Shown: positions 2,184 through 43,681 of the stretch, one piece after another
Numbering within the stretch: the first letter of the stretch is position 1
Layout of the letters: each line of letters opens with the position of its first letter
DNA from: Escherichia phage vB_VIPECOTPH05B
Reading direction: 5' to 3' (one strand)
Sequence record: PQ429080.1
Length of the DNA stretch: 44,015 bases
Program-made: the position numbers and the translations under genes
The notes under the pieces: model-generated
Told to the model about the DNA's origin: nothing
Seen by the model: the letters and a program-made list of their open reading frames with translations, nothing else
Database searches by the model: none

Positions 2184-4430
2184 CTACATTTTAACTTTTA
2201 CAAACCCGTTAGCGTCCCTATACAGCCGCCCAGCAACTGTCGGTACTGTGTCGGTCAGTGATGGGAACGATACGTCATCGTCTGCACTAAACAATCCACT
2301 GGCGCTTATGTTTGCAAATTGCACATCACCAGCATTTATGGAGAATTCAGGCATTGTCAAGTTCGCTCCTAACCTGTTAGTGGAGTACTGGGGTGACATC
2401 ACGAACAGGTGCTCGTTTGTGGGAATGCTGCCTGTGATGATAGTACCCACCCCGCTAACCCCCGATACATTCAAGTCACCCTGTATATTGATGATGTTGC
2501 GCCCCGCGCTGCCAACATAGTTTATAAACTTACACCCGTATACGTAGGCATTAAACGAGCAGTTTTTTACCTGAGAAGAGGCGTCAGTACCCAATTGCAG
2601 CGCGTGCACAGCCGTAGCTGGCGTACTGTTCATTGGCGCCCCAACAAATCCGTGGAACATGTTAGCATCGCTAGCCATAATAACAGCTGCGCCCGCTTGC
2701 CAGTTCGAATACACTCGGGTATTTATTACGGAGTTTCTAGCACCCTCAAAATACACCTGAGCGCTTGCTGCGCCCTCAAAATGGCAGTTGCTAATAAAGG
2801 TGTCGTAGCCTGCCACGTACAGCCCGTAGCGCATACGGTTACTGTATAGAGGTGTCACGTTGGCATCCCCGAAAGCCCACACATGCATCTGAGAGCCGCG
2901 AGTACCCCCACCACCACCATAACGGATACCATCATAGGTGTTGTGTGCTAGCAAACCTGCGCTACGCACCATCAAATGGTCTGATTGGTTGTCGGAAGAA
3001 CCACCAATAACTATACCATGTTGCCCAACCATATCTACTCGGATATCCGAGTACTTGCTTGGAGCCATGTATTTTATACTGGTATTACCCCTGCCCCCCA
3101 GGTTTACCCCCACGCCTCTGCAGTACCCAGCACGGATGCCTTTTAGATTTGTACCCGCCCCGTAAATCCGGAGGCACTCAGTATGCGACCGAGTATTTTC
3201 AGCGGTCCCATCCCAACCTCCCTCAATTATAAGGTCCTCTATGTAGATGGAATTCACCATAGCCGAGGGCACGTTTACCGTAAGATAATCTCCGGCTGGC
3301 GCGTTGCGCGACTTAACTATAGCATCATCCCAACTGCTTAAAGCCAAAACCCTAGAGATGCCTTCCACCCCAACAACTTTTACGCTGTCAGGTAAAATCC
3401 AGGGGCCGGACGTGGCGTAGGTTTTGGGCCCCAGATAGATTGGGAGGGACAGGCTCGCAGCGTATTCCGCAGCCGAGTTTAGGGCTGCAATGTCATCTGT
3501 GACCCCATCCCCGACGGCCCCAAACTGTTCCGGAGTTATAAACCACAGTACCAGCTTAGGTATAATTGAACCCGCTTTATAGTCTAGCGCGGACTGTACT
3601 GTGCCGCCCTGCGAAGTTCCAATGTAACCGGCACCAGACGAGCTGCTCAGCATGGCGAGTATATTGGCTAACGCAGACGTATCTGCCTCTGTGTCTATGC
3701 CAATAGTACAATCCACCAAGGTGCCCGCCGGTAGTACTGAGGTGAATTTAATAGACCCATCAATGACATCGTAAGAGTACCCAGCTGTCTGGGTTACACC
3801 ATTTACGCGAACCTTAGCCTTAGTGAAAGGCATGCCGGGAGTTACGGTATCCGTAGCAGTTGTCAGTACAGTCCACCAAGGGAAGCTGTTAGTGTTTGCA
3901 TTGAAGTGAGTCTGCTCCAGATTCACTATACGCGTATCCAGTTCAGCGTCAGCAGCCTCACGAGCAGCTGCCTCAGCATCTACTCGCACATCCAGCCGGG
4001 CATCCCCGGCATCGACGTATTGCTTGTTCGCAGCGTCCTGTGCATCTACTGGGTCGCCCAGGTTCGTGATGCGGTAACGATGCATATTAATGTCGCCATA
4101 GAAGCCTTCGATATAGCGGCCCTCAACCAGCTCTTGAGCCAGGTGCAGGAGCTGCATATTCTGGGTATCTACGTTTACTTCGATGAACGGAGCACCACTA
4201 GCAAATTCAATGTAGAGGTACTCTCGTTCAGTCTTACGAATGAGCAGTACCTCCGTCTCTGCAGATAGCGCCGAATTCAGTCGAATATTGGTGGAGCTGG
4301 TCCAAGTAAAGGCGGTGGTCTCGACGCCATCCAAATAAACGTGAATATAGGACTTATCCAGGTACTCAATATCGCACTGGATATCCTGAGTACCTGCAGG
4401 CTTTACCGACTCTTGCCAGCTGAATGCCAT
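2184..4430 (-). CDS. Tail fiber / tailspike protein (T7 gp17-like N-terminal adaptor plus beta-helix-like C-terminal domain)
   Basis: 748 aa; N-terminal about 150 aa resembles the conserved gp17 tail-attachment domain; the remainder is Gly/Asn/Ser/Thr-rich in a way typical of right-handed beta-helix receptor-binding or depolymerase domains. Confidence 0.75.
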   Translation of the reverse strand: MAFSWQESVKPAGTQDIQCDIEYLDKSYIHVYLDGVETTAFTWTSSTNIRLNSALSAETEVLLIRKTEREYLYIEFASGAPFIEVNVDTQNMQLLHLAQELVEGRYIEGFYGDINMHRYRITNLGDPVDAQDAANKQYVDAGDARLDVRVDAEAAAREAADAELDTRIVNLEQTHFNANTNSFPWWTVLTTATDTVTPGMPFTKAKVRVNGVTQTAGYSYDVIDGSIKFTSVLPAGTLVDCTIGIDTEADTSALANILAMLSSSSGAGYIGTSQGGTVQSALDYKAGSIIPKLVLWFITPEQFGAVGDGVTDDIAALNSAAEYAASLSLPIYLGPKTYATSGPWILPDSVKVVGVEGISRVLALSSWDDAIVKSRNAPAGDYLTVNVPSAMVNSIYIEDLIIEGGWDGTAENTRSHTECLRIYGAGTNLKGIRAGYCRGVGVNLGGRGNTSIKYMAPSKYSDIRVDMVGQHGIVIGGSSDNQSDHLMVRSAGLLAHNTYDGIRYGGGGGTRGSQMHVWAFGDANVTPLYSNRMRYGLYVAGYDTFISNCHFEGAASAQVYFEGARNSVINTRVYSNWQAGAAVIMASDANMFHGFVGAPMNSTPATAVHALQLGTDASSQVKNCSFNAYVYGCKFINYVGSAGRNIINIQGDLNVSGVSGVGTIITGSIPTNEHLFVMSPQYSTNRLGANLTMPEFSINAGDVQFANISASGLFSADDDVSFPSLTDTVPTVAGRLYRDANGFVKVKM

Positions 4431-4431
4431 A

Positions 4432-7400
4432 TTAATCGTCTCCGAAGTTATTGATGATAGCTCGCGTAGGTGCGAATTCCTGTATTAGCGGCACCTGCTT
4501 AGTGAAGGTCTTTATATCCATATTACCGGTAGCCAGGTCCTGTACGGCCCCGAGCAACCCTGTGACGTAACCCATAGATGCCAACGAGTGACGAGGGGAA
4601 TCTCCCAGGAAGATATCCTGCAGTAAGGATACCCCGCCGATGGCACTCATACCCATTACGGACTCGCTGATGAGTTTCTGAGTGTCTACGTCCTTACCAT
4701 CCATGCCATGCTTAGCCATAGTAGCCAGCAGCATTAACGGGAACTGGTACGCCATAATATGGGCTACGCCAATCCACCCAGCGTCGTTCAGCTCTCTGCG
4801 CAGAATCTTGTTAGTGGCTGCCAGTGCGAAGCTCTGGTACCCTACAATGACTTTGCCGATAGGATTGAACTGTGCAAAGTGCGAGGTCTCTCCAGTACGA
4901 ATCTGCTGTACCAGGTAGTCCATCATACGCGTCCCCACAACCTCAACTTGCATCTGCAGGTCCGGCTGGAACATAGCGCCCGGGTTAGCCTTGTTGGCAG
5001 CGATAGCGCGGTCAGCAACATCGCGAGTAAGCCCGAAACGCTCCAGACGCTTAAACGCCTCAGCATCGCCCTTGAACATCTGAGTAAGCTCGTCCGCCAC
5101 AATACCGGAGTTCAGGTTCACCTGTAGCCGGTGCACCATGCTCATACCGTTGACGTGACGGGCAGCCTGCCCAACGTTCTGGGTGACGTTGAACCAGGAG
5201 GCCTGACGGGTCAGGTCCAGGTTATCGTCAGCGTACGTATTCAGCCAGCGGAAGCGCATCTCCTTCTGAATATTACCCCGCAGCACGGTATCTAGACGAG
5301 CAGCCATATCCGGGGTCTTGATAGCCACGGCACCTTCCTTGAACCAAGGCTGGTCACGCATACTGCGCAGCACTCTAGCCATACCGAACTCCTTCATAGC
5401 CAAAGCAGTATCGGTCAGCTGATACAGGCCGGAGTTCTTAAGCATAGTGGCGTTTGCCATATTCCCAGCTGCACGCAGCAAGTCCGGAAGCTGCCCAGCG
5501 TCAGCAGGTGCCCCACCCAGGATAAAGTCGATGGTGTCATTGACGGTCTTCTCCCACTTGGCGGAATCCGCTAGTACGTGCTTAGACTCATCAATCATCT
5601 TGGCGAGCTGTCCCAGGTCCTGTACGCCTGCATAGGCCATACCTACACGTCCAGACATACGGTTAGTGTACCCGTGCATAACCTTGGCTACGTCAGTATC
5701 CATCAGGTCCTGCATGCGCATGCTCTTACCGTTCACCAGATACTCTTTATCCATGTTGAACCGAGTACGCTGGCGCAAGTTCCGCGCAGGGGATGTGCTG
5801 CCGGATTCGCGTACGTTACCAGCCAGGAAGCTCTGGATTGCAGACTCTTCTACACCGGCGCTGCGCATAGCCATAACGACCTCGTCGTTACCCATGCCGT
5901 TAATCAGCTGCTTCCACATAGGGCCAGCCTGCCCAGCACGGCCATTGTAGATGCCGTCAACCATCTCCTTAGCAACACGCTGCACTACCTCTGACTCCAT
6001 GCTCGGGTACACATCCCGCAGGGCGGACCGGAACAGGGCGCGGTAGTCATCCAGGGTATTGCCTTGTGCGATACCTTGGCGCATCTTGTCGTAGCTGTAC
6101 TGGCGCGGGAAGTAGTAGTCGGATTTAACCAACGCACCATCATCCACTAAACCGGCATTGAGCATATGCTCGTGCCACTTGCTAGCCCAGCCAGAGCGGC
6201 GATAGGCGTCAACCAGTGGAGCAATCTCTGCGTCCGGCACCGGCACAGCGCGGCCGTTTACGTCAGCGCTGTAGGCAGCATCCAGGTACTTGCTCAGGCG
6301 GTCTTCCAGCGCAGCCCGCTCAGCGCGGAAATTACTACGATGGAAGAAGCGTGAGAGTACACCTACACCCTTATCCTTCAACGCGCCCAGGATAGCATCT
6401 TCCACTACGCTGGCGCGAGCATCCATCTCCAAAGTTAGGTTACGCTTGTAGTCTACCACTGACGGGCGACGGCCGCCTACTGCGGACGCATCCGACACTA
6501 GCAGTTTAGCCAAGTCTTCGTTGCCTTGGGCGATATTATCGTACAGGGCAAACATAGTGGAGAGCTTCTTCTTAGCGCCGTCCAGCATAGCTTGGGCGCG
6601 CTTAGCCTCATTGAGGGTGGTGCTGCCCGCCAGGTCCTGGAAGGCTTCGCTACGGAAGCTCTGGGCTTGGTCTGCATAATCCTTAGCTGTCCACTTAACT
6701 GCGTCCTCATACGCATCCAGGACATCTTCCAAGGCAGAGCCTTTTGCCTTGATGCCCAGAGCGTTCATGATGTACTCACCCAGTTGGCGGAGCATACTCT
6801 TACCGGTGGGAGACTGCGTACGTGCCAGGTGCTCAACCCACTCAGGGCTGTCGCCTAAGCCTGCCAGCATCTCATGCACATTACTTGCGTAATACCGCAT
6901 ACGCGGTGTCAGGGTGGAGTCAGCCGCAATAACAGCGCGCACTTCCTCCAGGCGTTTAGCAATCTCGGGATTACTGTCAATGGCGCGCGCAGTAGCAGCA
7001 TGAATCAGTTCGTGCACGGCCACCTTGCTTGTATCTGCATCCATAGCGCGCAGCGCATCGCCGACTGTAGTCCAGGTGCTGCCGTTAGCTTGCTTAGGCG
7101 CACGCAGGGATATCTCTCCCCGCTTAGCTAAATCTTGTTGTGCGTAAGTGTAGCGGCTACGGTTTGCGGAGCCTGCTACCAGTTTAAAATCAATGTCATT
7201 TACAGCATCGCCCAGCGTGTACAGAATAGCCTTCTGTCCTGCTGTCAAGTGCTCAGACTTCTTCAAGAACTGAACTACGTGCTGTGCTTTCATGTTCACG
7301 GAGGCGGTATTGTTTCTCGATACTTGGATGCTTTCATCCAGTGTCTTAGTGAGAATTTCCTCTCCCTCTCCTACTCCGGTAACATTAGCATCCCTCGCTG

Positions 7401-8130
7401 TACGAGTTGTAGGCGCTTCTGGGTCGAACATGGGCTCACGCCCAGTACGAGCCTTAGCGGCAGCTTTAGCAGCCCTAGACATATCCCAGAGCTGGTCTAA
7501 CCCAGCTACGCCCGCTATCAGTGCAGTTACCGCGGCGGACTGGCCCAGTTGGTCCTGTGCATAGAACGCAGTGCCTACATCAGCAGCGCGGATAGCGGTA
7601 CGTGCAGCTAAGCCCGCGCGGCCAGCAATACCGGCGGCAGACATCGGGGCCAGGATGAACGGGGAGTCGCCTACCAACATACCCGCGAACCCGGCTACTG
7701 TGTTGTCGGCCATTAAGCGGTCACGGTCACGTTGCTCAAGCATCTGCTGCATGCGGTAGTTGTAATCTTCCACAGACACGGAGTCGTGCAGGTACTCAAT
7801 CTCTTCCTGATTCGGAGCATACAGCTTAGCCCGAGTATCGCTACTCAGGGTCTGCTTAGCATTAAAGTTCGGGTCTCGGTCAAATGCCGGAGCAGAGGCC
7901 TTGCGGATAGCTGCGGCGATTATGCTGTTGCCCATACCTGACGCAAAGCTCTCTGCGGCTGTAGTAGCCGGAGTCTTGGCTTGCGCTAGTAATGAGGCAC
8001 GCTCCAGTGCGTTCAGGCCGTTGTCCCCGGCATCGTTCCAATCTACGCGCTCAGGCGCAGGTTTAAGTGTTGCGCCCTTAGCAGAATCCTTTTCCTGTGG
8101 ATTCGGTTCTTGGTTCAGAAACTGAGCCAT
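4432..8130 (-). CDS. Internal virion (core) protein, largest (T7 gp16 / phiKMV gp37-like)
   Basis: 1232 aa, Ala-rich and predicted helical; third of three consecutive large genes between tail tube B and tail fiber. No transglycosylase motif recognised by eye. Confidence 0.7.
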   Translation of the reverse strand: MAQFLNQEPNPQEKDSAKGATLKPAPERVDWNDAGDNGLNALERASLLAQAKTPATTAAESFASGMGNSIIAAAIRKASAPAFDRDPNFNAKQTLSSDTRAKLYAPNQEEIEYLHDSVSVEDYNYRMQQMLEQRDRDRLMADNTVAGFAGMLVGDSPFILAPMSAAGIAGRAGLAARTAIRAADVGTAFYAQDQLGQSAAVTALIAGVAGLDQLWDMSRAAKAAAKARTGREPMFDPEAPTTRTARDANVTGVGEGEEILTKTLDESIQVSRNNTASVNMKAQHVVQFLKKSEHLTAGQKAILYTLGDAVNDIDFKLVAGSANRSRYTYAQQDLAKRGEISLRAPKQANGSTWTTVGDALRAMDADTSKVAVHELIHAATARAIDSNPEIAKRLEEVRAVIAADSTLTPRMRYYASNVHEMLAGLGDSPEWVEHLARTQSPTGKSMLRQLGEYIMNALGIKAKGSALEDVLDAYEDAVKWTAKDYADQAQSFRSEAFQDLAGSTTLNEAKRAQAMLDGAKKKLSTMFALYDNIAQGNEDLAKLLVSDASAVGGRRPSVVDYKRNLTLEMDARASVVEDAILGALKDKGVGVLSRFFHRSNFRAERAALEDRLSKYLDAAYSADVNGRAVPVPDAEIAPLVDAYRRSGWASKWHEHMLNAGLVDDGALVKSDYYFPRQYSYDKMRQGIAQGNTLDDYRALFRSALRDVYPSMESEVVQRVAKEMVDGIYNGRAGQAGPMWKQLINGMGNDEVVMAMRSAGVEESAIQSFLAGNVRESGSTSPARNLRQRTRFNMDKEYLVNGKSMRMQDLMDTDVAKVMHGYTNRMSGRVGMAYAGVQDLGQLAKMIDESKHVLADSAKWEKTVNDTIDFILGGAPADAGQLPDLLRAAGNMANATMLKNSGLYQLTDTALAMKEFGMARVLRSMRDQPWFKEGAVAIKTPDMAARLDTVLRGNIQKEMRFRWLNTYADDNLDLTRQASWFNVTQNVGQAARHVNGMSMVHRLQVNLNSGIVADELTQMFKGDAEAFKRLERFGLTRDVADRAIAANKANPGAMFQPDLQMQVEVVGTRMMDYLVQQIRTGETSHFAQFNPIGKVIVGYQSFALAATNKILRRELNDAGWIGVAHIMAYQFPLMLLATMAKHGMDGKDVDTQKLISESVMGMSAIGGVSLLQDIFLGDSPRHSLASMGYVTGLLGAVQDLATGNMDIKTFTKQVPLIQEFAPTRAIINNFGDD
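7369..7388 (-). promoter_or_regulatory. Conserved element TTACCGGAGTAGGA, copy 3 (inside the largest internal virion protein gene)
   Basis: 14-nt exact match to the core of the other two copies, same orientation, followed by GAGGGAGAGG. Confidence 0.25.
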
Positions 8131-28037: not shown

Positions 28038-30391
28038 TCTACTTTCTCCTTACTGTACATACTCGTACCCATCTCAGCCTCTGCTGGGAACGGGACCTCA
28101 CCAATGATACCGTAGTTAGGCCAGAGCTGGTGGATACGCTTAGGTGCGTCCTCCATGCACTGCTTAACCAGCAGGCTCGCCTCACGTCCAACCTCCGGGT
28201 TGGCGCTGTCCAGATACAATGCATCGTGTACGTTCGTAATCAGGCACACCTGATTGTCGAACCAGTCACGGGCCAGGAGTGCACGCAGAACCATACCAGC
28301 CGCCACCGCCATCAGGAAGAATGCTTCCCCCTGGCACCAGTAGTTAGCCATCTCGGTTTCCTTGTAGTCCATGACCTTCTGCTTACGCTGCCCAGGCACA
28401 ACCTCCTTCCACTGCTCCTTCTGGCGGAAGCTATAGCGGGCACCGGCTGGGCTGGTCCACGTCCCAATGCGATACAGTCGGTAGCTGCCGTCGTCCGCCT
28501 GCTCGCGGTACATGCGCCCCTCGTTCCCGGTACGCTCTACCTCTTCCTTGACAACAGCACGGAATCCGATGGTGTCTGGAAACAGCTTCGCCTCGTTATC
28601 CAGGAACGACTGCGCATACTCCACTGTACAGCCTGTAGCAAACGCGATCCCTTTAGCCGTAGCCCCGTACTGTGCAGCAAAGCTGGGCGGCTTAATATCA
28701 GTACGCTGCTGCTTCCAGTACTTGTAGTCCGGTCCGTCTGGGTTATGGCAGAGGTCGTACATCTCCTCGTACGTCTTACCTTCCTTGAACGCTAGGCGAT
28801 AGCAGTGCATGTCCGTGCCCGCCTGTAGTAACCCCAATAATTTGCGGTCTCCAGTGTGAACACAAGACATAACCACTTCCAGGGCAGAGTAGTCAACCTC
28901 AGTGATACGACCAGCTTCTCCGAAACGAGAGGTGAACATCTGCTTAACCCGGCTTGTGCCATCGCGCGGTAGATTCTGGAGGTTCGGGTTAGAGCCCGAC
29001 AGTCGCCCGGTGACAGTGGCACAGGTGTTAAGACGGTGGTGGATAATACCTGAACCATCAGGGTTCTGAGGTATGACGTATTGAAGCATGCCCGAGGTCT
29101 TTTTAACTGACCCATCTTCGTTGTACTCCGTTCTCAGGTAATAGGTCCCTGTGTCTTTCTCTAGAGCACCTAACTCGTTTACCAATCGGCAGAGCTCGAA
29201 ACCTTGGCGAGCCAGTGCCTCCATTGCGTCAGTGCTGGTGCTGTATACTGGCGTACCGTCCTGCAGGGTGCGCGCCTGTCGGAACTCTCCGCGCTCTGCG
29301 TACTTCTCCCGGATAACTTCCGGAAGCTCCTGTATGTTCACCAGTCCCGGGCAGAAGTAAAGGTCATCCTCCCACTTGAGCTTCTCCTCGTCAGTGTCCA
29401 CTCGGAACACTTTAGGTAGGCCCTTGTTCTTCCCTGCTTTGTAGACTACGTAATTGTGAGGTCCAGAGACGTCCGTGCTTTCACATGGTACGAATGTTCC
29501 ATCAGTGCCCTGTACCAGATATGCGTCATACTTAACGTACTGCGGAGGGTCATAGGGTACCTTCTTGCGGTACTTGATAGGCCCGCCGTATACCAGTGCA
29601 GACATATGGAAGTCCGAGCCGAAGTTGAAATCCAGTGTCTCCGGCAAGTCCTTCGGGATGTACTGCTGCAGCTCCTGCTTAATCTCACGGATGCGCTGCT
29701 CCTGCTCCTCCTGGTTCTTGCGCGCAATTGGCATGTTCACGAACAGGCCGAACCATTGACAATAGCTCCAAGCTAGTACTGCCTCCATCCGTTCGTAGAC
29801 ATATTGCATCTGGTTGCGTTCGGCGAATAGGGCGCATTGCCCATAGAAGCACAGCCCGGTATTTGGCACGTCACCGTTGACAAGGTAATCGTGAAGCAGG
29901 TACGGGTCAATTTCGGAAGTCCGCTTTCCTTGCTCCCACAGTATCTTTACCCCATCGACTTTGTGCTGACCACCCCATTTTGGGGCGGTCTCATCTAGCC
30001 CCGGATACATCTCCTGGAAATCTGAGGCTATGTACTGCCCATGCTGCGTACAATATACGCGCCCGCCGCGCTTTAGGAAATCCTCAAAATGTTTTCTCTG
30101 ATATGAGAGGAACCAAGACACCTCGAAGCTGCTGTTGTGCGCGACTATCATAGTGCAGTGTTCTGGTATGGAAAACCACTGGTGCGGCCCCTCGTTGTCC
30201 GCCAGAAACTCAGCCTTGTTGTTGAAGCGAATACTGAATACGTCCCCTATATGCAACTGCCCGGCATCGTCCACCGTGTCTATGCGGTATGCGCTTTCTA
30301 CAACATAGTTATCGGGGCAGTACGGGGATGCTACGTTGCCGTAGTACTCAAAGTTCTCGACCTCTAAATCCACTATCATAATCTGGTACAT
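28034..30391 (-). CDS. DNA polymerase, family A (T7 gp5-like) with N-terminal 3'-5' exonuclease domain
   Basis: 785 aa; DnaQ-like exo motif near the N-terminus (IVDLEVENFEY) and Pol I-type polymerase motifs in the C-terminal half. Confidence 0.95.
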   Translation of the reverse strand: MYQIMIVDLEVENFEYYGNVASPYCPDNYVVESAYRIDTVDDAGQLHIGDVFSIRFNNKAEFLADNEGPHQWFSIPEHCTMIVAHNSSFEVSWFLSYQRKHFEDFLKRGGRVYCTQHGQYIASDFQEMYPGLDETAPKWGGQHKVDGVKILWEQGKRTSEIDPYLLHDYLVNGDVPNTGLCFYGQCALFAERNQMQYVYERMEAVLAWSYCQWFGLFVNMPIARKNQEEQEQRIREIKQELQQYIPKDLPETLDFNFGSDFHMSALVYGGPIKYRKKVPYDPPQYVKYDAYLVQGTDGTFVPCESTDVSGPHNYVVYKAGKNKGLPKVFRVDTDEEKLKWEDDLYFCPGLVNIQELPEVIREKYAERGEFRQARTLQDGTPVYSTSTDAMEALARQGFELCRLVNELGALEKDTGTYYLRTEYNEDGSVKKTSGMLQYVIPQNPDGSGIIHHRLNTCATVTGRLSGSNPNLQNLPRDGTSRVKQMFTSRFGEAGRITEVDYSALEVVMSCVHTGDRKLLGLLQAGTDMHCYRLAFKEGKTYEEMYDLCHNPDGPDYKYWKQQRTDIKPPSFAAQYGATAKGIAFATGCTVEYAQSFLDNEAKLFPDTIGFRAVVKEEVERTGNEGRMYREQADDGSYRLYRIGTWTSPAGARYSFRQKEQWKEVVPGQRKQKVMDYKETEMANYWCQGEAFFLMAVAAGMVLRALLARDWFDNQVCLITNVHDALYLDSANPEVGREASLLVKQCMEDAPKRIHQLWPNYGIIGEVPFPAEAEMGTSMYSKEKVE

Positions 30392-30392
30392 A

Positions 30393-30866
30393 CTAAACCT
30401 CTAAATATCCCAGAGAATTGGCGGCCGCCTTTCTGGCAGCAGCGGCCTCTTCCAGTGAGTGGAATCTTCCCAAACGCACTTGCTTTCCGTCCCGGTTTAC
30501 GTATGCCGACCAGCGTTTCCGCCTGGCATCGTATGACACCCCGGGGACTCCAGAACTATTGCGCTTATCCGTGGTTTTGTTTCGGTTATTTAGTGTCACC
30601 GGAACTGCCCTGAGATTGTCAATACGGTCGTCTTCCCGGTTTCGGTTTATGTGGTCTATAACGCACCCACTAGGAATATCCCCGTAGTGCATTTCCCAAA
30701 CAATCCTTGCGCGTTTGTACGCCCTTCCATTTAACCCCACAACCCAGCGGTTGTGGTGCCTTTCCAGGTACCCCGCCAATTTACCAGGCTGACACGCGCC
30801 ATTTGGGCTGGTGTGGGTCCAGTATAGTTTACCATCCTTGTACGTGAAGTGTTCTTTCCAGTTCAT
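30393..30866 (-). CDS. HNH homing endonuclease with AP2-like domain (paralog of 15715..16191)
   Basis: HNH motif (RIVWEMHYGDIPSGCVIDHINRNREDDRIDNLRAV) and AP2-like C-terminus (WSAYVNRDGKQVRLGRFHSLEEAAAARKAA); track ORF begins at GTG 30872, first ATG is 30866. Confidence 0.8.
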   Translation of the reverse strand: MNWKEHFTYKDGKLYWTHTSPNGACQPGKLAGYLERHHNRWVVGLNGRAYKRARIVWEMHYGDIPSGCVIDHINRNREDDRIDNLRAVPVTLNNRNKTTDKRNSSGVPGVSYDARRKRWSAYVNRDGKQVRLGRFHSLEEAAAARKAAANSLGYLEV

Positions 30867-34472: not shown

Positions 34473-35528
34473 TTAACCATCCACAATATTATCGTATCCG
34501 CCCCAGTCCTCTACGACTCTGGTGCCTAGTTCAATCAGTTCTTCTTTGAAGCCGTAATCGGAGAACACCATGATGTACTCCGCCGCCTTCGCTGGATTCT
34601 CCTGCACCCAGCTAACCAGCTGCTGTTTAGAAAGCTGTGACACTACACGGAACGCAGCCAGCAATTGCGGGTCCTCGTCCGGCGGCATATCCCACGGCTG
34701 CCGTAAACTGAGCGTCGAAGCAGAGAGCCACTGGTCTGGCTCCAGTACCTTCGGGTCCCGCTCAATCGGAAGGTGCGAGAACGTACCATCTTGCAGTACC
34801 CGCTCAAGCACTTGCCCCAGGATGTTCAGGTCCAGTACCTCATCCGGAGTGTGTTCGTGCATGTACCCTACGCCGACGTTGGTGCACTCAGGTATAATTC
34901 CAACGAACTCGGCTGAGTCAGTGTACACCCCCTTCTGTAAGTGCTGCTCCGTGCGTCCCAGGCGCTCTGCTAGGGTCTTTGCAAAGGTATCAGAGCAGCA
35001 GCGCATATACCTTTGATGCGTAATGATTCCGTCGCCGCGTCGGTCGAAGCTAATCATTGCCTTGACCCCAGTCCAAAATCCAGAGTCATCCTTGACCGAT
35101 GCAGCGCTACCCTCGCAGCCTACCTCTTCATCCACGAAGAAGCAGTAGCGTCCATGCACACCCCGTCGCAGCATCTCCAGCATCAGATAGATACCGGCAC
35201 CACAGTCAGCACCCAAGCAGTCAGCTTGTTGCGGATTCTTTACGAACAGTACACCCTTGTTAGTGCAGCCGACGTCCGGCGCAGCGCTGGTTGGCCTCGC
35301 CACTGTGTCGAGATGAGACGTAAACGCTACGTCACTTTGCTCTGAGTCCCCCACCAGCACGAAGTAGTTCCCGTGCTTGTCCTTTACGTAGTGCATACCA
35401 CTACCCAGCGCCTGTAAAGACTGCATAAGCAGCGGCTCAAACCACTTAGTGCTTGCCCAGCTAGGCCGGTGCGTTTGCAGTATCTGCAAGAGCAGCTGCA
35501 CATCAATCCCGTGCGGATTCAAGAACAT
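34473..35528 (-). CDS. Putative zinc metallopeptidase / deacylase (M20/M28/M42-like)
   Basis: 351 aa; candidate metal ligands in the expected order: FTSHLDTV, GADCGAG, DEEVGCEGS, YMHEHT. Family from motif pattern only. Confidence 0.5.
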   Translation of the reverse strand: MFLNPHGIDVQLLLQILQTHRPSWASTKWFEPLLMQSLQALGSGMHYVKDKHGNYFVLVGDSEQSDVAFTSHLDTVARPTSAAPDVGCTNKGVLFVKNPQQADCLGADCGAGIYLMLEMLRRGVHGRYCFFVDEEVGCEGSAASVKDDSGFWTGVKAMISFDRRGDGIITHQRYMRCCSDTFAKTLAERLGRTEQHLQKGVYTDSAEFVGIIPECTNVGVGYMHEHTPDEVLDLNILGQVLERVLQDGTFSHLPIERDPKVLEPDQWLSASTLSLRQPWDMPPDEDPQLLAAFRVVSQLSKQQLVSWVQENPAKAAEYIMVFSDYGFKEELIELGTRVVEDWGGYDNIVDG

Positions 35529-35869
35529 TAAGCTGCCTCCTCTACTTCTTCTTCATCATCGTTTCCAAGGTACTTCTCTCCCAAGCAATCGGCTGCATGC
35601 TCAGTTAGAATTAACCCGTGCACTGGATGTTCTTCTGCGTGCTCAATAAGCACCTGCCGGTCCTGTGCATACACCAGTTCTTCTTGGTCGTGCACTACCC
35701 CTTCTACCGAACAGTGCTCAATGTCCGCGTCATATACATAGGCGTCGTGGTAATCAGACCAGGTGCAGTTCCAGCGACTATGCAGCCCTTCTCGGCCAAC
35801 TACATATACAAAGTCCCCATCTTCGACACAGCCGTCGCAGACCATTTCACCGTCGGCGGTTTCGTGCAT
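35528..35869 (-). CDS. Highly acidic small protein (about 113 aa), possible DNA-mimic-type host-takeover protein
   Basis: By my count about 31 D/E against 4 K/R in 113 residues, C-terminus NDDEEEVEEAA, plus CDGC/HC Cys-His pairs; start uncertain (alternatives at 35941 and 35974 overlap the upstream gene). Confidence 0.45.
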   Translation of the reverse strand: MHETADGEMVCDGCVEDGDFVYVVGREGLHSRWNCTWSDYHDAYVYDADIEHCSVEGVVHDQEELVYAQDRQVLIEHAEEHPVHGLILTEHAADCLGEKYLGNDDEEEVEEAA

Positions 35870-35873
35870 ATCA

Positions 35874-37202
35874 TCAGTGGAGTAACGCCCCCCCGCAGCA
35901 GCAGCACCGAGCAGACTCTGTACCTGCGTAGATGTATCCATCGGCTTCTTGCGCCTCGTACTCGTAGTCATCACGGATTACAAAGGCGTCATCCTCATAC
36001 TCATCTACGCCGCGCTGGCTGCTATCTAGGTATGGCATCAGCACTGCGCCGTTGTATGTTGGGTGCGGTATCCGCGCCAGCATGACCCCTTCGAGACACT
36101 CAGTGTTTCTGGTGTACCCATGCCCCCGCAGGATTGCATCCGCAGCGTTGCCATAAGCACGGACGTACTCTTTGGTTTCAGGTTTTACGATTGCTCGTGC
36201 CTGCACTTCGAAGTCGTCCCCGAACAGCTCCCCGGTATACTGGATGAATAGGCGCAACCCGTTATCCGGCAACCCGTGGCTAGTAGTAGCGTACGTCCGC
36301 ACAGGGCTATACTCAAATGAGTACCCGCTCATGCAGCTACTTGGGCCGTTCTCGTAGGCGTCGTACCACTCCTGCTCGGTCTTGCACAGGTACACTGTAG
36401 GCTCTACGTTCATAGCCTTGAGGTCTTCGATAGCATCGCGGAAGTCCACCCCGTTGCCATAGTAGTTAGCGAGCCACTTACCTACGCGCATCTCCACGCA
36501 GCGGTACTCAGTAACTGCGGCGAAGTCCTTGTGCATCCGCGGCTGCCCCAGCATCACGATGGGCTCGCCGTTGCGGAAGCCAAAGCCCAAAGGCACGGCG
36601 AATCTAGACACTACGAAGCCGTGCAACTTCATGAGCAGGGCAGCAGTATAACCATCGCGGATGCATCTGCTGTAATCGTAGCCAGTGTATAGGCGGCGCT
36701 GATTATCTTCTGGTGCAAGCATAATGCGCTCGAATAATTGCACGGCCTGCTTGTGCACCTTGTAGCCGGTTAACTCTTCGACGCGAGCAACTACGCGCTC
36801 AACCACTACATCATCACCATCATAGAAGTCTCGGCGCTGTTCCCAGAACTTGCTATCAATGGTGCGCCGCGCCGGGGCAAAGAGTTCGTAGAAAGTTCCG
36901 CTGTTATACAGGTCCACCTTTTGCAACGGGCCGAGAGTCCTCATCAACCCGCGGTATTTTGGGTGCAGTGCCCCGCCTATAGTCACCTCTAAGCCGGGAG
37001 TGAGCATGCTCACAGTGCGGAGACCCGTAAGCGCCTGCAGTGGACCTTCGGTGTGGGGGTGGTCAGCGCCCTGCATTTGCAAGTCCTGGAACGGGGTCCA
37101 GTAATCACCGCTGGAATACATTGATTCTTTCATCGGCAGTGCGTTTGCACCTTCCGGTAACACTACTTTCCATTCGATAGGTGCTGTGTTAGTCTCTTGC
37201 AT
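35874..37202 (-). CDS. Large early protein of unknown function (about 442 aa), C-terminus ends in CCCC
   Basis: Track ORF reaches 37496 but overlaps the upstream gene; the ATG at 37202 has AGGAG 9 nt upstream (alternative ATG at 37259). No kinase, ligase or Walker motif recognised. Confidence 0.5.
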   Translation of the reverse strand: MQETNTAPIEWKVVLPEGANALPMKESMYSSGDYWTPFQDLQMQGADHPHTEGPLQALTGLRTVSMLTPGLEVTIGGALHPKYRGLMRTLGPLQKVDLYNSGTFYELFAPARRTIDSKFWEQRRDFYDGDDVVVERVVARVEELTGYKVHKQAVQLFERIMLAPEDNQRRLYTGYDYSRCIRDGYTAALLMKLHGFVVSRFAVPLGFGFRNGEPIVMLGQPRMHKDFAAVTEYRCVEMRVGKWLANYYGNGVDFRDAIEDLKAMNVEPTVYLCKTEQEWYDAYENGPSSCMSGYSFEYSPVRTYATTSHGLPDNGLRLFIQYTGELFGDDFEVQARAIVKPETKEYVRAYGNAADAILRGHGYTRNTECLEGVMLARIPHPTYNGAVLMPYLDSSQRGVDEYEDDAFVIRDDYEYEAQEADGYIYAGTESARCCCCGGALLH

Positions 37203-40461: not shown

Positions 40462-40494
40462 GCAAAAAGGGTAAGCAGACCCCTAAAGGTCTGC
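40462..40494 (-). terminator. Possible terminator-like hairpin at the 3' end of the HNH gene
   Basis: GCAGACC-6 nt loop-GGTCTGC stem overlapping the HNH stop codon, followed on the minus transcript by UUACCCUUUUUG. Confidence 0.3.
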
Positions 40495-40869
40495 GTGCAG
40501 TAAGCTATTGTAATCCCCATAGGTTACGTCGAACTCTCGCCAGTTAGTGTCGTAGTCCGGACTAGCCAATAACTCCTCTTTTGTGAAACATCTCCCCTCC
40601 TTAATCTGCGCTAGGTGAATGGCGCGGTGAGTGTCGGCGCTAACCAATATCAGGTTATCAAAGGCGCAGTTAAGACGGTTACTGTCACAGTGATGTACAT
40701 GGTAGCCAGAGCCGTAGCTAGTGATACCCAGTGCATCCATAACCACGGCTCTATGCAGCGCCATAGTCCTACGGTCCTTTTTACCGTTCTTACGTATACA
40801 CGCTGGACCAGCACCGTTAATCACTGGATAGCCCTCTTTATCAACCACAATCTTAAATGTTCTAGCCAC
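40483..40869 (-). CDS. HNH endonuclease (third HNH gene in the window)
   Basis: 128 aa; HVHHCDSNRLNCAFDNLILVSADTHRAIH motif; apparent GTG start with TAAGGAG 8 nt upstream; flanked by the two longest ORF-free stretches. Confidence 0.7.
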   Translation of the reverse strand: MARTFKIVVDKEGYPVINGAGPACIRKNGKKDRRTMALHRAVVMDALGITSYGSGYHVHHCDSNRLNCAFDNLILVSADTHRAIHLAQIKEGRCFTKEELLASPDYDTNWREFDVTYGDYNSLLHADL

Positions 40870-40879
40870 AACAATAACT

Positions 40880-41694
40880 CCTTACATAGTGATGAGTAGC
40901 GTAACCATAGCGACGATATCCCGGAGGGATAGGAGCGGAGGTTACAAGATTCTAGGGATAGCAGCCTACTGCGTAGGCACAGGGCTATCCTAGTGAATAC
41001 CTAGTAGGGACTAGTAAGGACTAGTATTAAGTAGTGTGTATATAGTGCCCTAAAACCCTCCTACTCCGGTTACTTCATTTCATAATAGCTTTCGAATGAA
41101 AGTAAGAGCAAAGGGATAGCATTGGGATAGCGCTGGGATAGCGGCAGAGTGTGGATGTGCGCCCTAGTGGGGAGCGCGCAGCGTAGCATATAATTAGCAC
41201 AATGTAAAGCCCCAAGGATAGCCAGTGGATAGCCTAGTGCATACTAGGGATAGCACTAGGGATAGCACCACAGCGCACTAGCTGGCCCACTAGGCAGGCA
41301 CAAAATAAGCAAGGCAGAGCGCACCCCTATGGCCCACAGGGAGCGCACAGGGAGCGCCTAGTGAACGCACAGGGATAGCACCAGTGCCCCATAGAGCGCA
41401 CAGGAAGCCCTACAAGGCACGCACAGGCAAAGCCATAGGGTAGCACTAGCAATAGCCCTAGCGCAGCGCAGAGAGCCACTGAGGCCCACTGGTGCGCCCT
41501 AGCAGGCCCACCCAGTGCCCCCCCCCTAAATTGGCGCTAGGCACCCCCTATGGGGGCAATTGGGCGCGCTGAGGGTGAGGGACCCTGCCGCGTGAGTATA
41601 ATAAATTTCGGGTTCAGGTATAGACGTGCACCCGGATAGCCCCAGATAGCCCCACATAGACGCCCAGTGCTTACTCTAGTACTTACCCTAGCAC
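40880..41694. repeat. ORF-free repeat-rich region: at least 10 copies of GGATAGC plus CACAGGG/CACTAGG motifs, a C9 homopolymer and short tandem repeats; probable genome-terminus region
   Basis: No ORF of 60 aa or more on either strand across about 800 bp; GGATAGC at about 40956, 41114, 41125, 41136, 41216, 41227, 41248, 41259, 41373, 41634 (first three tandem copies spaced 11 bp); C-run at 41518..41526. Confidence 0.6.
41059..41080 (-). promoter_or_regulatory. Conserved element AAATGAAGTAACCGGAGTAGGA, copy 1 (candidate phage-RNAP promoter)
   Basis: 21 of 22 nt identical to the copy after the RNAP gene; lies in the repeat region upstream of the HNH gene. Confidence 0.35.
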
Positions 41695-41880
41695 TTATTC
41701 TGCGATAGCCCCGGAGGCCCGCAGGGACGCTAACAGGGCCGCCAGAGTAACCGCCAGTGCCTCTGCCGTAGTATCGGTAGCATCAGCTACAGCAACCCCT
41801 TGCAGTACCCCGCCGATAGAGTCCGTAGTAGCTTCCGGTAATACCGGTGCCTTTGCTTGTACAAGCTCAACCAGTGCCAT
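41695..41880 (-). CDS. Hypothetical small protein (61 aa) at the distal end of the lysis cassette
   Basis: ATG 1 nt after the endolysin stop; Ala/Val/Thr-rich with a hydrophobic C-terminal stretch; no lipobox. Confidence 0.4.
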   Translation of the reverse strand: MALVELVQAKAPVLPEATTDSIGGVLQGVAVADATDTTAEALAVTLAALLASLRASGAIAE

Positions 41881-41881
41881 A

Positions 41882-42490
41882 TTAACCTCCTACCCCTTTA
41901 AGCGCAGCGATTGCTGCATTCACATTCTTGTACTGGTTCCCAATAGCTTTGCTCTGCCACTGCCTGCGCTCCCATAGGCCCCAGCACACTTTATTGCGCT
42001 GCCCGTTAACGTATTGGGAACAGTCGAAGGTCCAGCGGTTGCCGCCCTTGTACACCCAGCCAGTGCCGGGGGACTTCTGCTGGTACTTGCTAATATAGCG
42101 CCAGTCCAGCACAGCCTTCGCGGCCGATGCATAATCAAGGCTTTTGAGGTGGCGCTTCACGGAGCTTCCGTTGAAACCCGCCACGCCTACGTTGTACGTG
42201 AAGTCCAGGGCACCTAGCAGGGCCACGTCAGAGAGCTGCATAGGAAGCCCGTCAAGAGCTTTTGCATGCTCCCCTGCTGATTGTATCAGTTGCTTCTGAC
42301 AATCGCTCAGCGTGGCTCTCTGGCCCATTTTGACGCCCTTTGTCTCACCGTAGCAGATAGTCGGGACACCGGCGCTATCCTTATAGGCAGTAAGGCTCAA
42401 CCCCTCGTTATGCTGCACCACCCCGGTAATAGCGCCGCCAAGCATAGTGGCCCCCGTAAGGGCCGCCACAACCTTAGTCCTTAAACTCAT
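41882..42490 (-). CDS. SAR endolysin, T4-lysozyme-type muramidase (GH24-like)
   Basis: 202 aa; weakly hydrophobic Gly/Ala-rich N-terminus (KVVAALTGATMLGGAITGVV) followed by the catalytic E-x8-D-x5-T pattern (NEGLSLTAYKDSAGVPT); start overlaps the holin 3' end. Confidence 0.85.
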   Translation of the reverse strand: MSLRTKVVAALTGATMLGGAITGVVQHNEGLSLTAYKDSAGVPTICYGETKGVKMGQRATLSDCQKQLIQSAGEHAKALDGLPMQLSDVALLGALDFTYNVGVAGFNGSSVKRHLKSLDYASAAKAVLDWRYISKYQQKSPGTGWVYKGGNRWTFDCSQYVNGQRNKVCWGLWERRQWQSKAIGNQYKNVNAAIAALKGVGG

Positions 42491-42725
42491 ATTTAATAGT
42501 CCCCTTACGTGCCTGCTCCTCTAGGAGCTTGAATGTACGCCGCTTGTAATACGCATTCCACGCCAGGGTTAGCACTGCGCACACCGTCGCAGTGATGAAG
42601 CTGATAGTGCTCCAGTTCCAGCTCATTACTTCTGCCACCCAACCTCCAGATACAGCCGCTGTAGTGGCTGTAGTCCCTGCCTTGGTGATTACGTCAGTAG
42701 ACACTACATCCGAAACCTTAATCAT
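42474..42725 (-). CDS. Holin (pinholin-like)
   Basis: About 83 aa from first ATG; weakly hydrophobic first segment, strong TM helix (WSTISFITATVCAVLTLAW), charged C-terminal tail; immediately upstream of and overlapping the SAR endolysin. Confidence 0.55.
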   Translation of the reverse strand: MIKVSDVVSTDVITKAGTTATTAAVSGGWVAEVMSWNWSTISFITATVCAVLTLAWNAYYKRRTFKLLEEQARKGTIKYEFKD

Positions 42726-42733
42726 GTACACCT

Positions 42734-43099
42734 CTATACAATTATCAGTGACTGTGAGAACACAGGCATCGGATAGTTAGTATCTTCCGCCGGGTAGAAG
42801 CCGTACCAGGGGCACCATATATCTCGGTTAGGGTACAGTATCACCCAGTGACTGTGACTTGTACCGCGTTCGCATCTAGCCCTCGTTATACGAGTAGCAT
42901 TCGATTTCGACCACCACACCCTGCCCAGACTCACCCCGCAGGTCCTCGCCACTTTAATTAAATCGCTAAAGGTGCTGGCATCTGTAGGACGTTTAAGGGT
43001 GCTTAGCCATGCGGCCTCAATATCCTCATAAGGGATATCTAAAAGGGATGACAGCGCGGCCGCGCCGCAATCGTCGTCCTTACGTTGTAGCGTCTGCAT
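42734..43099 (-). CDS. Small cysteine-peptidase-like protein (papain/C39-like Cys...His...Asp arrangement) in the lysis cassette
   Basis: About 121 aa from ATG with AAGGAA 8 nt upstream; N-terminal DDDCGAAALSSLL and downstream HSHWVILYPNRD resemble the Cys and His/Asp motifs of C39-type peptidases. Motif-level call only. Confidence 0.45.
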   Translation of the reverse strand: MQTLQRKDDDCGAAALSSLLDIPYEDIEAAWLSTLKRPTDASTFSDLIKVARTCGVSLGRVWWSKSNATRITRARCERGTSHSHWVILYPNRDIWCPWYGFYPAEDTNYPMPVFSQSLIIV

Positions 43100-43499
43100 C
43101 TTCTCGTTCCTTACTTTTACCAAACACTCTGCGCATCACCAGGATGACCACTAGGAAGATAAGTGGAATACTGGCCCCGGCTAATCCCGCCAGGATTAGA
43201 CTGTAGCTGTCGTTGTTTACTACCTGTAAACGGTCAGCCTGGATAGTACCAGTACTAATAGTCTGGACCTGCTTCTTACTAGAAGTGTCCAAAGTCCCAA
43301 CTGTAGAATCGGTTACGTCAGTCTTATTGGTGGTGCTGGCATCCACCTTGTTATTCAAGCCAACGGTTTGTTTGGTGTTCTCGGCACCAACCTGAGCAGA
43401 TACATCCGGCTTAGAACCAACTAAGCCGGTGAGTGCAGAGGTCGCCGAGCAACCAGTCAGAGTAACCGCGAGCAGTAACCCAGCGACCAGTTTACGCAT
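43080..43499 (-). CDS. Candidate unimolecular spanin: outer-membrane lipoprotein with C-terminal transmembrane helix
   Basis: 139 aa; lipoprotein signal with lipobox LTGC and Ser at +2; Ser/Thr-rich middle of about 80 aa; C-terminal TM helix (LILAGLAGASIPLIFLVVILVM) followed by RRVFGKSKERE; no Rz/Rz1 pair seen elsewhere. Confidence 0.5.
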   Translation of the reverse strand: MRKLVAGLLLAVTLTGCSATSALTGLVGSKPDVSAQVGAENTKQTVGLNNKVDASTTNKTDVTDSTVGTLDTSSKKQVQTISTGTIQADRLQVVNNDSYSLILAGLAGASIPLIFLVVILVMRRVFGKSKEREDADATT

Positions 43500-43681
43500 T
43501 AGCTTGCCGCCTTCACTGCGGCTACCGCGGCTTCAAGCGCAGCAATCTTGGTATCGAAGTCTGCGCCAGTCTGGGCAACGTTCTGCGGCTGCGTAAGGAT
43601 AGCATACAGGTCCTTACCGAGAATGTTCAGCTGGCGCAGCAGCTCCTGCTGTTGCGCTGAGGTTGCTTTTGCAATTGCCAT
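43499..43681 (-). CDS. Hypothetical small protein (60 aa), helical
   Basis: ATG with AAGGGG 8 nt upstream; TAA stop overlaps the ATG of the lipoprotein gene (TAATG). Confidence 0.4.
   Translation of the reverse strand: MAIAKATSAQQQELLRQLNILGKDLYAILTQPQNVAQTGADFDTKIAALEAAVAAVKAAS

Follow-up and report, generated by a model that had tools for sequence, protein, structure and literature searches.

A KP34 gp11-type putative metallopeptidase of clan MH and its conserved upstream partner gene in the early region of Escherichia phage vB_VIPECOTPH05B

Introduction

The closest described counterpart of the gene considered here is gp11 of phage KP34, which the first description of KP34 (PMC3082699) named a 'putative peptidase' and which was counted among the core genes of the proposed genus Kp34likevirus (PMC4411677). 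In the PhiM1-like phages of Pectobacterium, the peptidase is the sole early gene with a predicted function (PMC6115819). Here we analyze the corresponding gene of Escherichia phage vB_VIPECOTPH05B (sequence record PQ429080.1; the whole stretch of 44,015 nucleotides is referred to below as the window) together with the gene directly upstream of it, which is similar to KP34 gp10 and is designated here as the partner gene. The peptidase is one of the conserved early enzymes of the KP34-like phages, a group much employed as candidates in phage therapy against Klebsiella.

Besides the phage proteins, three groups of peptidases serve for comparison, i.e., the PepT-like tripeptidases (MEROPS M20B), the TET/FrvX-type aminopeptidases (M42) and the M28 aminopeptidases. 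The phage protein very probably belongs with them as a two-metal hydrolase of clan MH (M20/M28/M42-type). Compared with the M20B enzymes it lacks the lid domain, and its association with the partner gene is retained in phages and prophage-like loci that are only distantly related to the KP34-like phages.

Results

The gene is an open reading frame (ORF) of 351 amino acids on the minus strand (34473..35528 in the ORF listing, with the stop included in the end coordinate) that starts with ATG and is flanked by small early ORFs on one side and by the primase-helicase-DNA polymerase block on the other (according to the GenBank annotation of a relative). Its product is 100% identical to that of locus VIPKPNMC07C_00020 of Klebsiella phage vB_VIPKPNMC07C (PQ505478.1; Drulisvirus, Slopekvirinae, Autographiviridae), which is annotated as 'peptidase' and phrog_4191. 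Indeed, the PHROG 4191 profile matches the protein over its full length (E 4.1e-157, residues 7-349 on profile positions 2-341 of 342). Megablast matched 244 phage records, five of which are identical across the gene (vB_VIPKPNMC07C among them); the other matches are mostly from Klebsiella KP34-like phages with ~94% nucleotide identity. At the protein level, the peptidase is ~93-98% identical to most orthologues from Klebsiella Drulisvirus phages, including KP34 and NTUH-K2044-K1-1. As in KP34, the gene has gp10 and gp12 as its neighbours and precedes the primase gene, and nothing substantial differs from gp11 except that the upstream gp10-like gene is frameshifted in the clade of the window phage. 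The gene had previously been described as not being a standard gene of the T7 group; this holds for T7 proper, from which it is absent, but in the phage's own group it is standard.

Homologues of the peptidase are not restricted to these phages. They were found with tblastn in 401 phage records, only nine of which are labelled 'Escherichia', and include proteins of Vibrio (Maculvirus), Pectobacterium (Phimunavirus), Thermus (P23-45), Bacillus and Cellulophaga phages. The family profile matched 8474 clusters (50% identity) at E<=1e-3 and 2577 clusters at E<=1e-30. The ratio of non-synonymous to synonymous substitution rates (dN/dS) is 0.04-0.09 in comparisons with seven orthologues, and the peptidase is therefore under strong purifying selection. 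At the level of sequence comparison, the ORF is confirmed as a real gene, as the strength of its matches is far beyond chance. Note that the gene as such is not new, being annotated as 'putative peptidase' in hundreds of KP34-like Klebsiella phages; what goes beyond the existing annotation is only the conserved peptidase-partner pair and the frameshift of the partner gene in the clade of the window phage.

In the Pfam search, the only family above its threshold was Peptidase_M28 (PF04389; 23.0 bits vs. a gathering threshold of 21.3 bits, E 7e-5), with a match that covers only positions 6-98 of the 193 profile positions, and the M20 and M42 families of Pfam did not match the window peptidase. 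Among 41 diverse homologues, 30 matched M28, six matched M20 and two matched M42. A profile built from these 41 sequences finds structures of PepT-like M20B enzymes (3gb0, 4e-14; 3rza), TET1 (M42) and PepD. The AlphaFold2 model is confident for residues 1-260, has an overall predicted local distance difference test score (pLDDT) of 82.6 and a predicted template modelling score of 0.81, and shows the alpha/beta catalytic-domain fold of clan MH; its pLDDT blocks are mostly at 87-98 with dips to 78-81, and the model is poor past approximately residue 268. These searches and the structure prediction had been proposed in an earlier note made from the sequence, which had described the gene as similar to zinc metallopeptidases of the M20/M28/M42 type; the M28 match, the affiliation with PHROG 4191 and the fold support this description.

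The four motifs named in the same note as carrying the metal ligands are all present and in the proposed order (HLDTV, residues 72-76; GADCGAG, 106-112; DEEVG, 133-137; YMHEHT, 222-227). However, in the last of them it is H226 that is invariant while H224 is variable, and the note had overlooked ligand 4, which is D162 in SFDRRG (its F-D-R is invariant). HMMER aligns SHLDTV, GADCGAG, DEEVG and EHT onto SHMDTV, GADDKAG, GEESG and IHT of 3gb0. H72, D74, D108, E134, E135, D162 and H226 are invariant across the 41 homologues (down to 35% identity), and the ordered ligand set of clan MH is present: His, the bridging Asp, the general-base Glu together with the ligand Glu, Asp and His. By analogy with the family, H72, D108 (bridging), E135, D162 and H226 would coordinate the metals, E134 would be the general base that activates the metal-bridging water, and D74 would orient H72. 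Furthermore, R163, Q172, C177-C178-S179, T203-D204 and E214-C215-T216-N217 are invariant residues specific for the family.

The predicted ligands 4 and 5 (D162 and H226) are only 64 residues apart, and the predicted secondary structure contains no extra domain between them. Correspondingly, ~150 residues of 3gb0 have no counterpart in the phage protein (query 142-182 vs. chain 149-302). The PepT-like M20B tripeptidases (3gb0, 3rza, 1fno, 1vix) are the best matches by both sequence profile and fold, and the motifs SH(L/M)DTV, GAD(C/D)xAG, (D/G)EExG and (E/I)HT are common to them and the phage peptidase and align one-to-one; however, the phage peptidase lacks their ~150-residue lid/dimerisation domain between ligands 4 and 5 and has a C-terminal helical module of its own. 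The PDZ-like dimerisation domain inserted in the M42 aminopeptidases (2cf4, 1y0r, 1ylo, 3cpx) is missing as well, and only the two relatives mentioned above touch the Pfam model of that family. In contrast, the M28 aminopeptidases (Aeromonas AAP, 1rtq; Streptomyces SGAP, 1cp7) consist, like the phage protein, of a single domain without insertion between ligands 4 and 5. The peptidase thus possesses neither the domain typical of M20 nor that of M42; its architecture is single-domain and M28-like, whereas its sequence and fold are closest to M20B/M42. As the peptidase is lid-less, its active site should be open, similar to that of M28 aminopeptidases, and could accept the termini of peptides or proteins.

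In M20 enzymes, substrate binding and transition-state stabilisation depend on the lid/dimerisation domain. Its absence is of importance for the possibility that the phage protein is a small-molecule amidohydrolase or deacylase (similar to DapE, ArgE, CPG2 or aminoacylases) that participates in auxiliary metabolism or destroys an amide-linked metabolite or signal. Such activities do occur within the clan (see Discussion). Nevertheless, the missing lid and the coupling to a large partner protein disfavour this explanation, as a stand-alone metabolic enzyme would not need to be tightly coupled to a protein of this size. The nearest neighbours in sequence and fold are of the tripeptidase and aminopeptidase types, and the NCBIfam equivalogs remain far under their cut-offs (16.6 vs. 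274 bits for PepT-like TIGR01883, 11.4 vs. 363 bits for [LysW]-lysine hydrolase). We therefore regard a deacylase function as possible but unlikely.

Some members of the family are considerably longer than the window peptidase. The closest entry of the viral structure database BFVD, A0A6M5CDE3 (76% identity over the peptidase), has 534 amino acids, which points to a fusion, or to a gene model of greater length, in some relative. Many distant family members carry long fused N- or C-terminal extensions (250-550 amino acids) of low complexity and AT-rich type, with repeated 'DF.(E/D)W(I/V)..N' helices and without Pfam match (P0162, P0175, P0212, P0164, P0194, P0198, P0202, P0204, P0209 and P0239 among the matches of the representative search). 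No informative Pfam domain was present in ten long fusion proteins, in which only a sub-threshold match to the DnaJ zinc finger was detected.

In the window, the TAA of the partner gene and the ATG of the peptidase gene overlap as TAATG (35526-35530), and the Shine-Dalgarno sequence of the peptidase gene is embedded in the final codons of the partner gene; the peptidase should therefore be translationally coupled to the upstream gene. A promoter and terminator scan of 32.5-39.5 kb gave counts equal to the shuffled expectation.

In Vibrio phage OY1 (32% identity, E 7e-36) and in PhiM1, too, the peptidase gene is directly preceded by the partner gene. Peptidase homologues can also be found in (pro)phage-like regions (one genome per species was scanned); near one of them there are genes for an integrase and a tail-collar protein. 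The ORF in front of the peptidase gene in Microvirga and Bradyrhizobium is homologous to the partner (E 1e-11 to the Klebsiella phage protein, 8e-45 to one another). A hidden Markov model of the partner detected it immediately upstream of the peptidase in loci from Bacteroidota, Proteobacteria, Burkholderiaceae and Rhizobiales (E 4e-18 to 4e-41), these four loci having been left out when the model was built. Even where the peptidase identity is down to 26-38%, as in prophage-like loci of Alphaproteobacteria, Burkholderiaceae and Bacteroidota, the two genes have remained neighbours.

For a count, 79 IMG/VR loci were added and the peptidases were clustered at >=70% identity. Among the resulting 50 clusters (from phages, prophage-like loci and viral contigs), 31 were paired with the partner, 16 were unpaired (no partner despite at least 1.5 kb of upstream sequence) and three were undetermined. 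In the paired clusters, the partner (~450-700 amino acids) is encoded on the same strand and usually overlaps with the peptidase gene or lies within 4 nucleotides of it; exceptions are a few clusters with one intervening gene and one with the partner downstream. The unpaired clusters belong mainly to a marine subfamily with long low-complexity C-terminal tails, found on contigs of ~45-460 kb (most >80 kb); Thermus phage P23-45 and a few other divergent loci are unpaired too. The neighbours of the unpaired marine homologues vary (ThyA, NUDIX, PhoH, RimB-like) and show no consistent association. The RimB-like gene (PF05618) is located at 7059-7457 of the JGI metagenome contig L003, two genes upstream of the peptidase homologue; this contig also bears genes for thymidylate synthase and family-B DNA polymerase, and the RimB-like link does not recur in the other unpaired locus.

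Paired and unpaired peptidases differ in their C-terminal part. A motif that reads LVSWVQENPAKAAEYI...GFKEELIELG in the window peptidase (general form 'LVxxxPxxVAxxLxxxGxxxxxLxxE') is a conserved feature of the paired peptidases and is missing in the unpaired marine subfamily (31 paired vs. 14 unpaired homologues). This bears on the possibility that the protein is a generic aminopeptidase that scavenges amino acids and acts alone, its neighbour reflecting mere inherited gene order. The broad specificity of the nearest relatives, the PepT and TET aminopeptidases, and the large unpaired subfamily in marine phages with large genomes would fit with such a role. However, the pair outlasts other neighbours: gp09- and gp12-like genes are conserved solely among the Autographiviridae relatives, and the peptidase-partner pairing is therefore not simple synteny. 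Together with the motif shared by the paired peptidases, this makes a solitary scavenger improbable.

The partner protein has an invariant core (YxNGPxSCM ... P..Y ... R ... YG ... PYxD), then Cys-rich repeats and finally an acidic tail. It had no match in Pfam, NCBIfam or the PDB sequences (searched with the single sequence and with a profile), and none of the three proteins compared with the PADLOC defence-system models (peptidase, partner fragment, gp12-like protein) gave a match. In PHROGs, the partner is placed in groups of 'unknown function' (phrog_6980/13313). Two large protein searches with the partner were saturated by near-identical orthologues from Klebsiella phages and added nothing. 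In GenBank, the partner of KPPK108.1 is labelled 'putative DNA mimic protein', which could not be substantiated. The acidic tail often ends with Ala or Ala-Ala (e.g., ...EEVEEAA, ...DLALAA, ...EEGLAA; examples are window positions 35531-35545 and loci L079, L084, L092 and L103), even where an intervening gene abolishes the overlap with the peptidase start. This ending resembles the C-terminus of the ssrA degron; it may also partly reflect the embedded Shine-Dalgarno sequence.

In the clade of the window phage, one extra G (G7 vs. G6) splits the partner gene into two ORFs (Table 1). The partner of KPPK108.1 is intact (559 amino acids) and has GAGTGGCG at the homopolymer site with no G run, and the IMG/VR relative L048 has G6 at the same site and the gene in frame. 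Among 40 sampled rows, a two-piece match of the partner was seen only in the vB_VIPKPN row (H72, TPH10). The extra G is either a homopolymer sequencing error shared by these records, or a real frameshift, or a slippage site. A separate break of the partner gene is present in L041 (IMG/VR UViG_3300045988_002414) at ~3630-3640, two codons past the CCCC motif, where TGA replaces the TGT of the relatives L037, L038, L043 and L056. Since both breaks fall at the same domain boundary, the partner may tolerate separation of its N-terminal core from the Cys-rich C-terminal part.

Table 1. Coordinates of the peptidase gene, its parts and the partner gene in the window
Feature	Position	Strand	Remarks
Peptidase coding sequence (351 amino acids plus stop)	34473..35528	-	Orthologue of KP34 gp11, PHROG 4191
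Predicted catalytic domain, ~residues 1-260, clan MH alpha/beta fold	34749..35528	-	
C-terminal region, ~residues 261-351, low-confidence linker followed by helical module	34476..34748	-	pLDDT 38-75, predicted helices 287-341
Shine-Dalgarno sequence GAGGAGG, 7 nucleotides before the peptidase ATG	35536..35542	-	Read from sequence
Partner gene (KP34 gp10-like, phrog_6980), C-terminal fragment with Cys-rich repeats and acidic tail ending -EEAA	35528..35869	-	Split off by frameshift
Partner gene, N-terminal fragment with core YxNGPxSCM ... RxYG ... MPYLD	35874..37202	-	Open frame upstream to 37496
G7 homopolymer, point of frame change in the partner gene	35888..35894	-	

Discussion

Taken as a whole, we give a probability of roughly 0.6 to the interpretation that the protein is an active cytoplasmic two-metal hydrolase of the exopeptidase type, which is expressed early and works together with its upstream partner. 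The peptidase would be made before or with the replication proteins, in translational coupling with the gp10-like protein, and would remove a terminal residue or an acyl group from a peptide or protein, either with the partner or under its direction. The partner, through a physical or functional interaction, could supply the substrate specificity that replaces the missing lid, or could itself be the substrate, and the helical motif at the C-terminus of the peptidase is a candidate docking element for it.

The clustering of the predicted ligands in space appears likely from a superposition at 2.4 Å and from the location of the ligand sites at strand ends or a helix start. Several points weigh against this interpretation. 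Clan MH comprises many non-peptidase amidohydrolases, so that the fold alone leaves the substrate unfixed. Furthermore, the 16 clusters without a partner imply that the enzyme can work alone, and if the frameshift is real, the full-length partner is non-essential in the window phage. As the partner contains no recognisable domain, the role ascribed to it is a guess. In the literature searched, neither KP34 gp11 nor PHROG 4191 nor any related phage M20/M28 enzyme was the subject of a functional study, and no experiment was found on any member of the family.

Hydrolysis of the cell wall or of peptidoglycan peptides, the alternative that the earlier note had put forward, is very unlikely. Some clan MH enzymes, e.g. 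DapE, do act on peptidoglycan-related substrates, and this general precedent is what speaks for such a function, direct evidence for it not having been found in the present analysis. However, the protein has no signal peptide or transmembrane segment, its N-terminus being a confidently packed helix of the domain in the AlphaFold2 model, and the gene lies among early and replication genes, whereas the annotation places an endolysin/holin/spanin cassette of its own at another site in the genome. An inactive enzyme that serves as a scaffold and has retained only the fold can be practically dismissed: apart from the Pfam score, which is barely over the threshold, nothing specific points to it, and the five ligands, the general-base Glu and the Asp of the HxD motif are invariant over 41 sequences under strong purifying selection.

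If the peptidase indeed works with its partner as an exopeptidase-type hydrolase, the two proteins might form a dedicated two-component module for host takeover or counter-defence, although we consider this extension speculative and rather doubtful. The partner would then pick a specific host or phage protein, or would itself be processed (its ssrA-like tail being one possible site), and the trimming of a terminus would fall to the lid-less metallopeptidase. Such a module, if true, would be widespread in podoviruses and in prophages of Proteobacteria and Bacteroidota, and its mode of action would be one undescribed for any phage early protein. The pairing shows that the association of the two genes is far older and more widespread than the Autographiviridae, and it provides a concrete handle, as it names a second protein to be studied alongside the peptidase.

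Other features of the window

The genes annotated as endolysin, holin and spanin in the identical GenBank record fall at ~40480-43500 of the window (minus strand), to the right of the early region. Relative to the canonical KP34-type map, the window is thus circularly permuted, and it probably contains the physical genome ends (terminal repeats), near 40.9-41.7 kb. Two HNH endonuclease genes are annotated in the same record, also on the minus strand: one (~30390-30865) between ORFs on the helicase side and the DNA polymerase gene, the other (~40480-40870) at the start of the early region. Both are likely to encode homing endonucleases.
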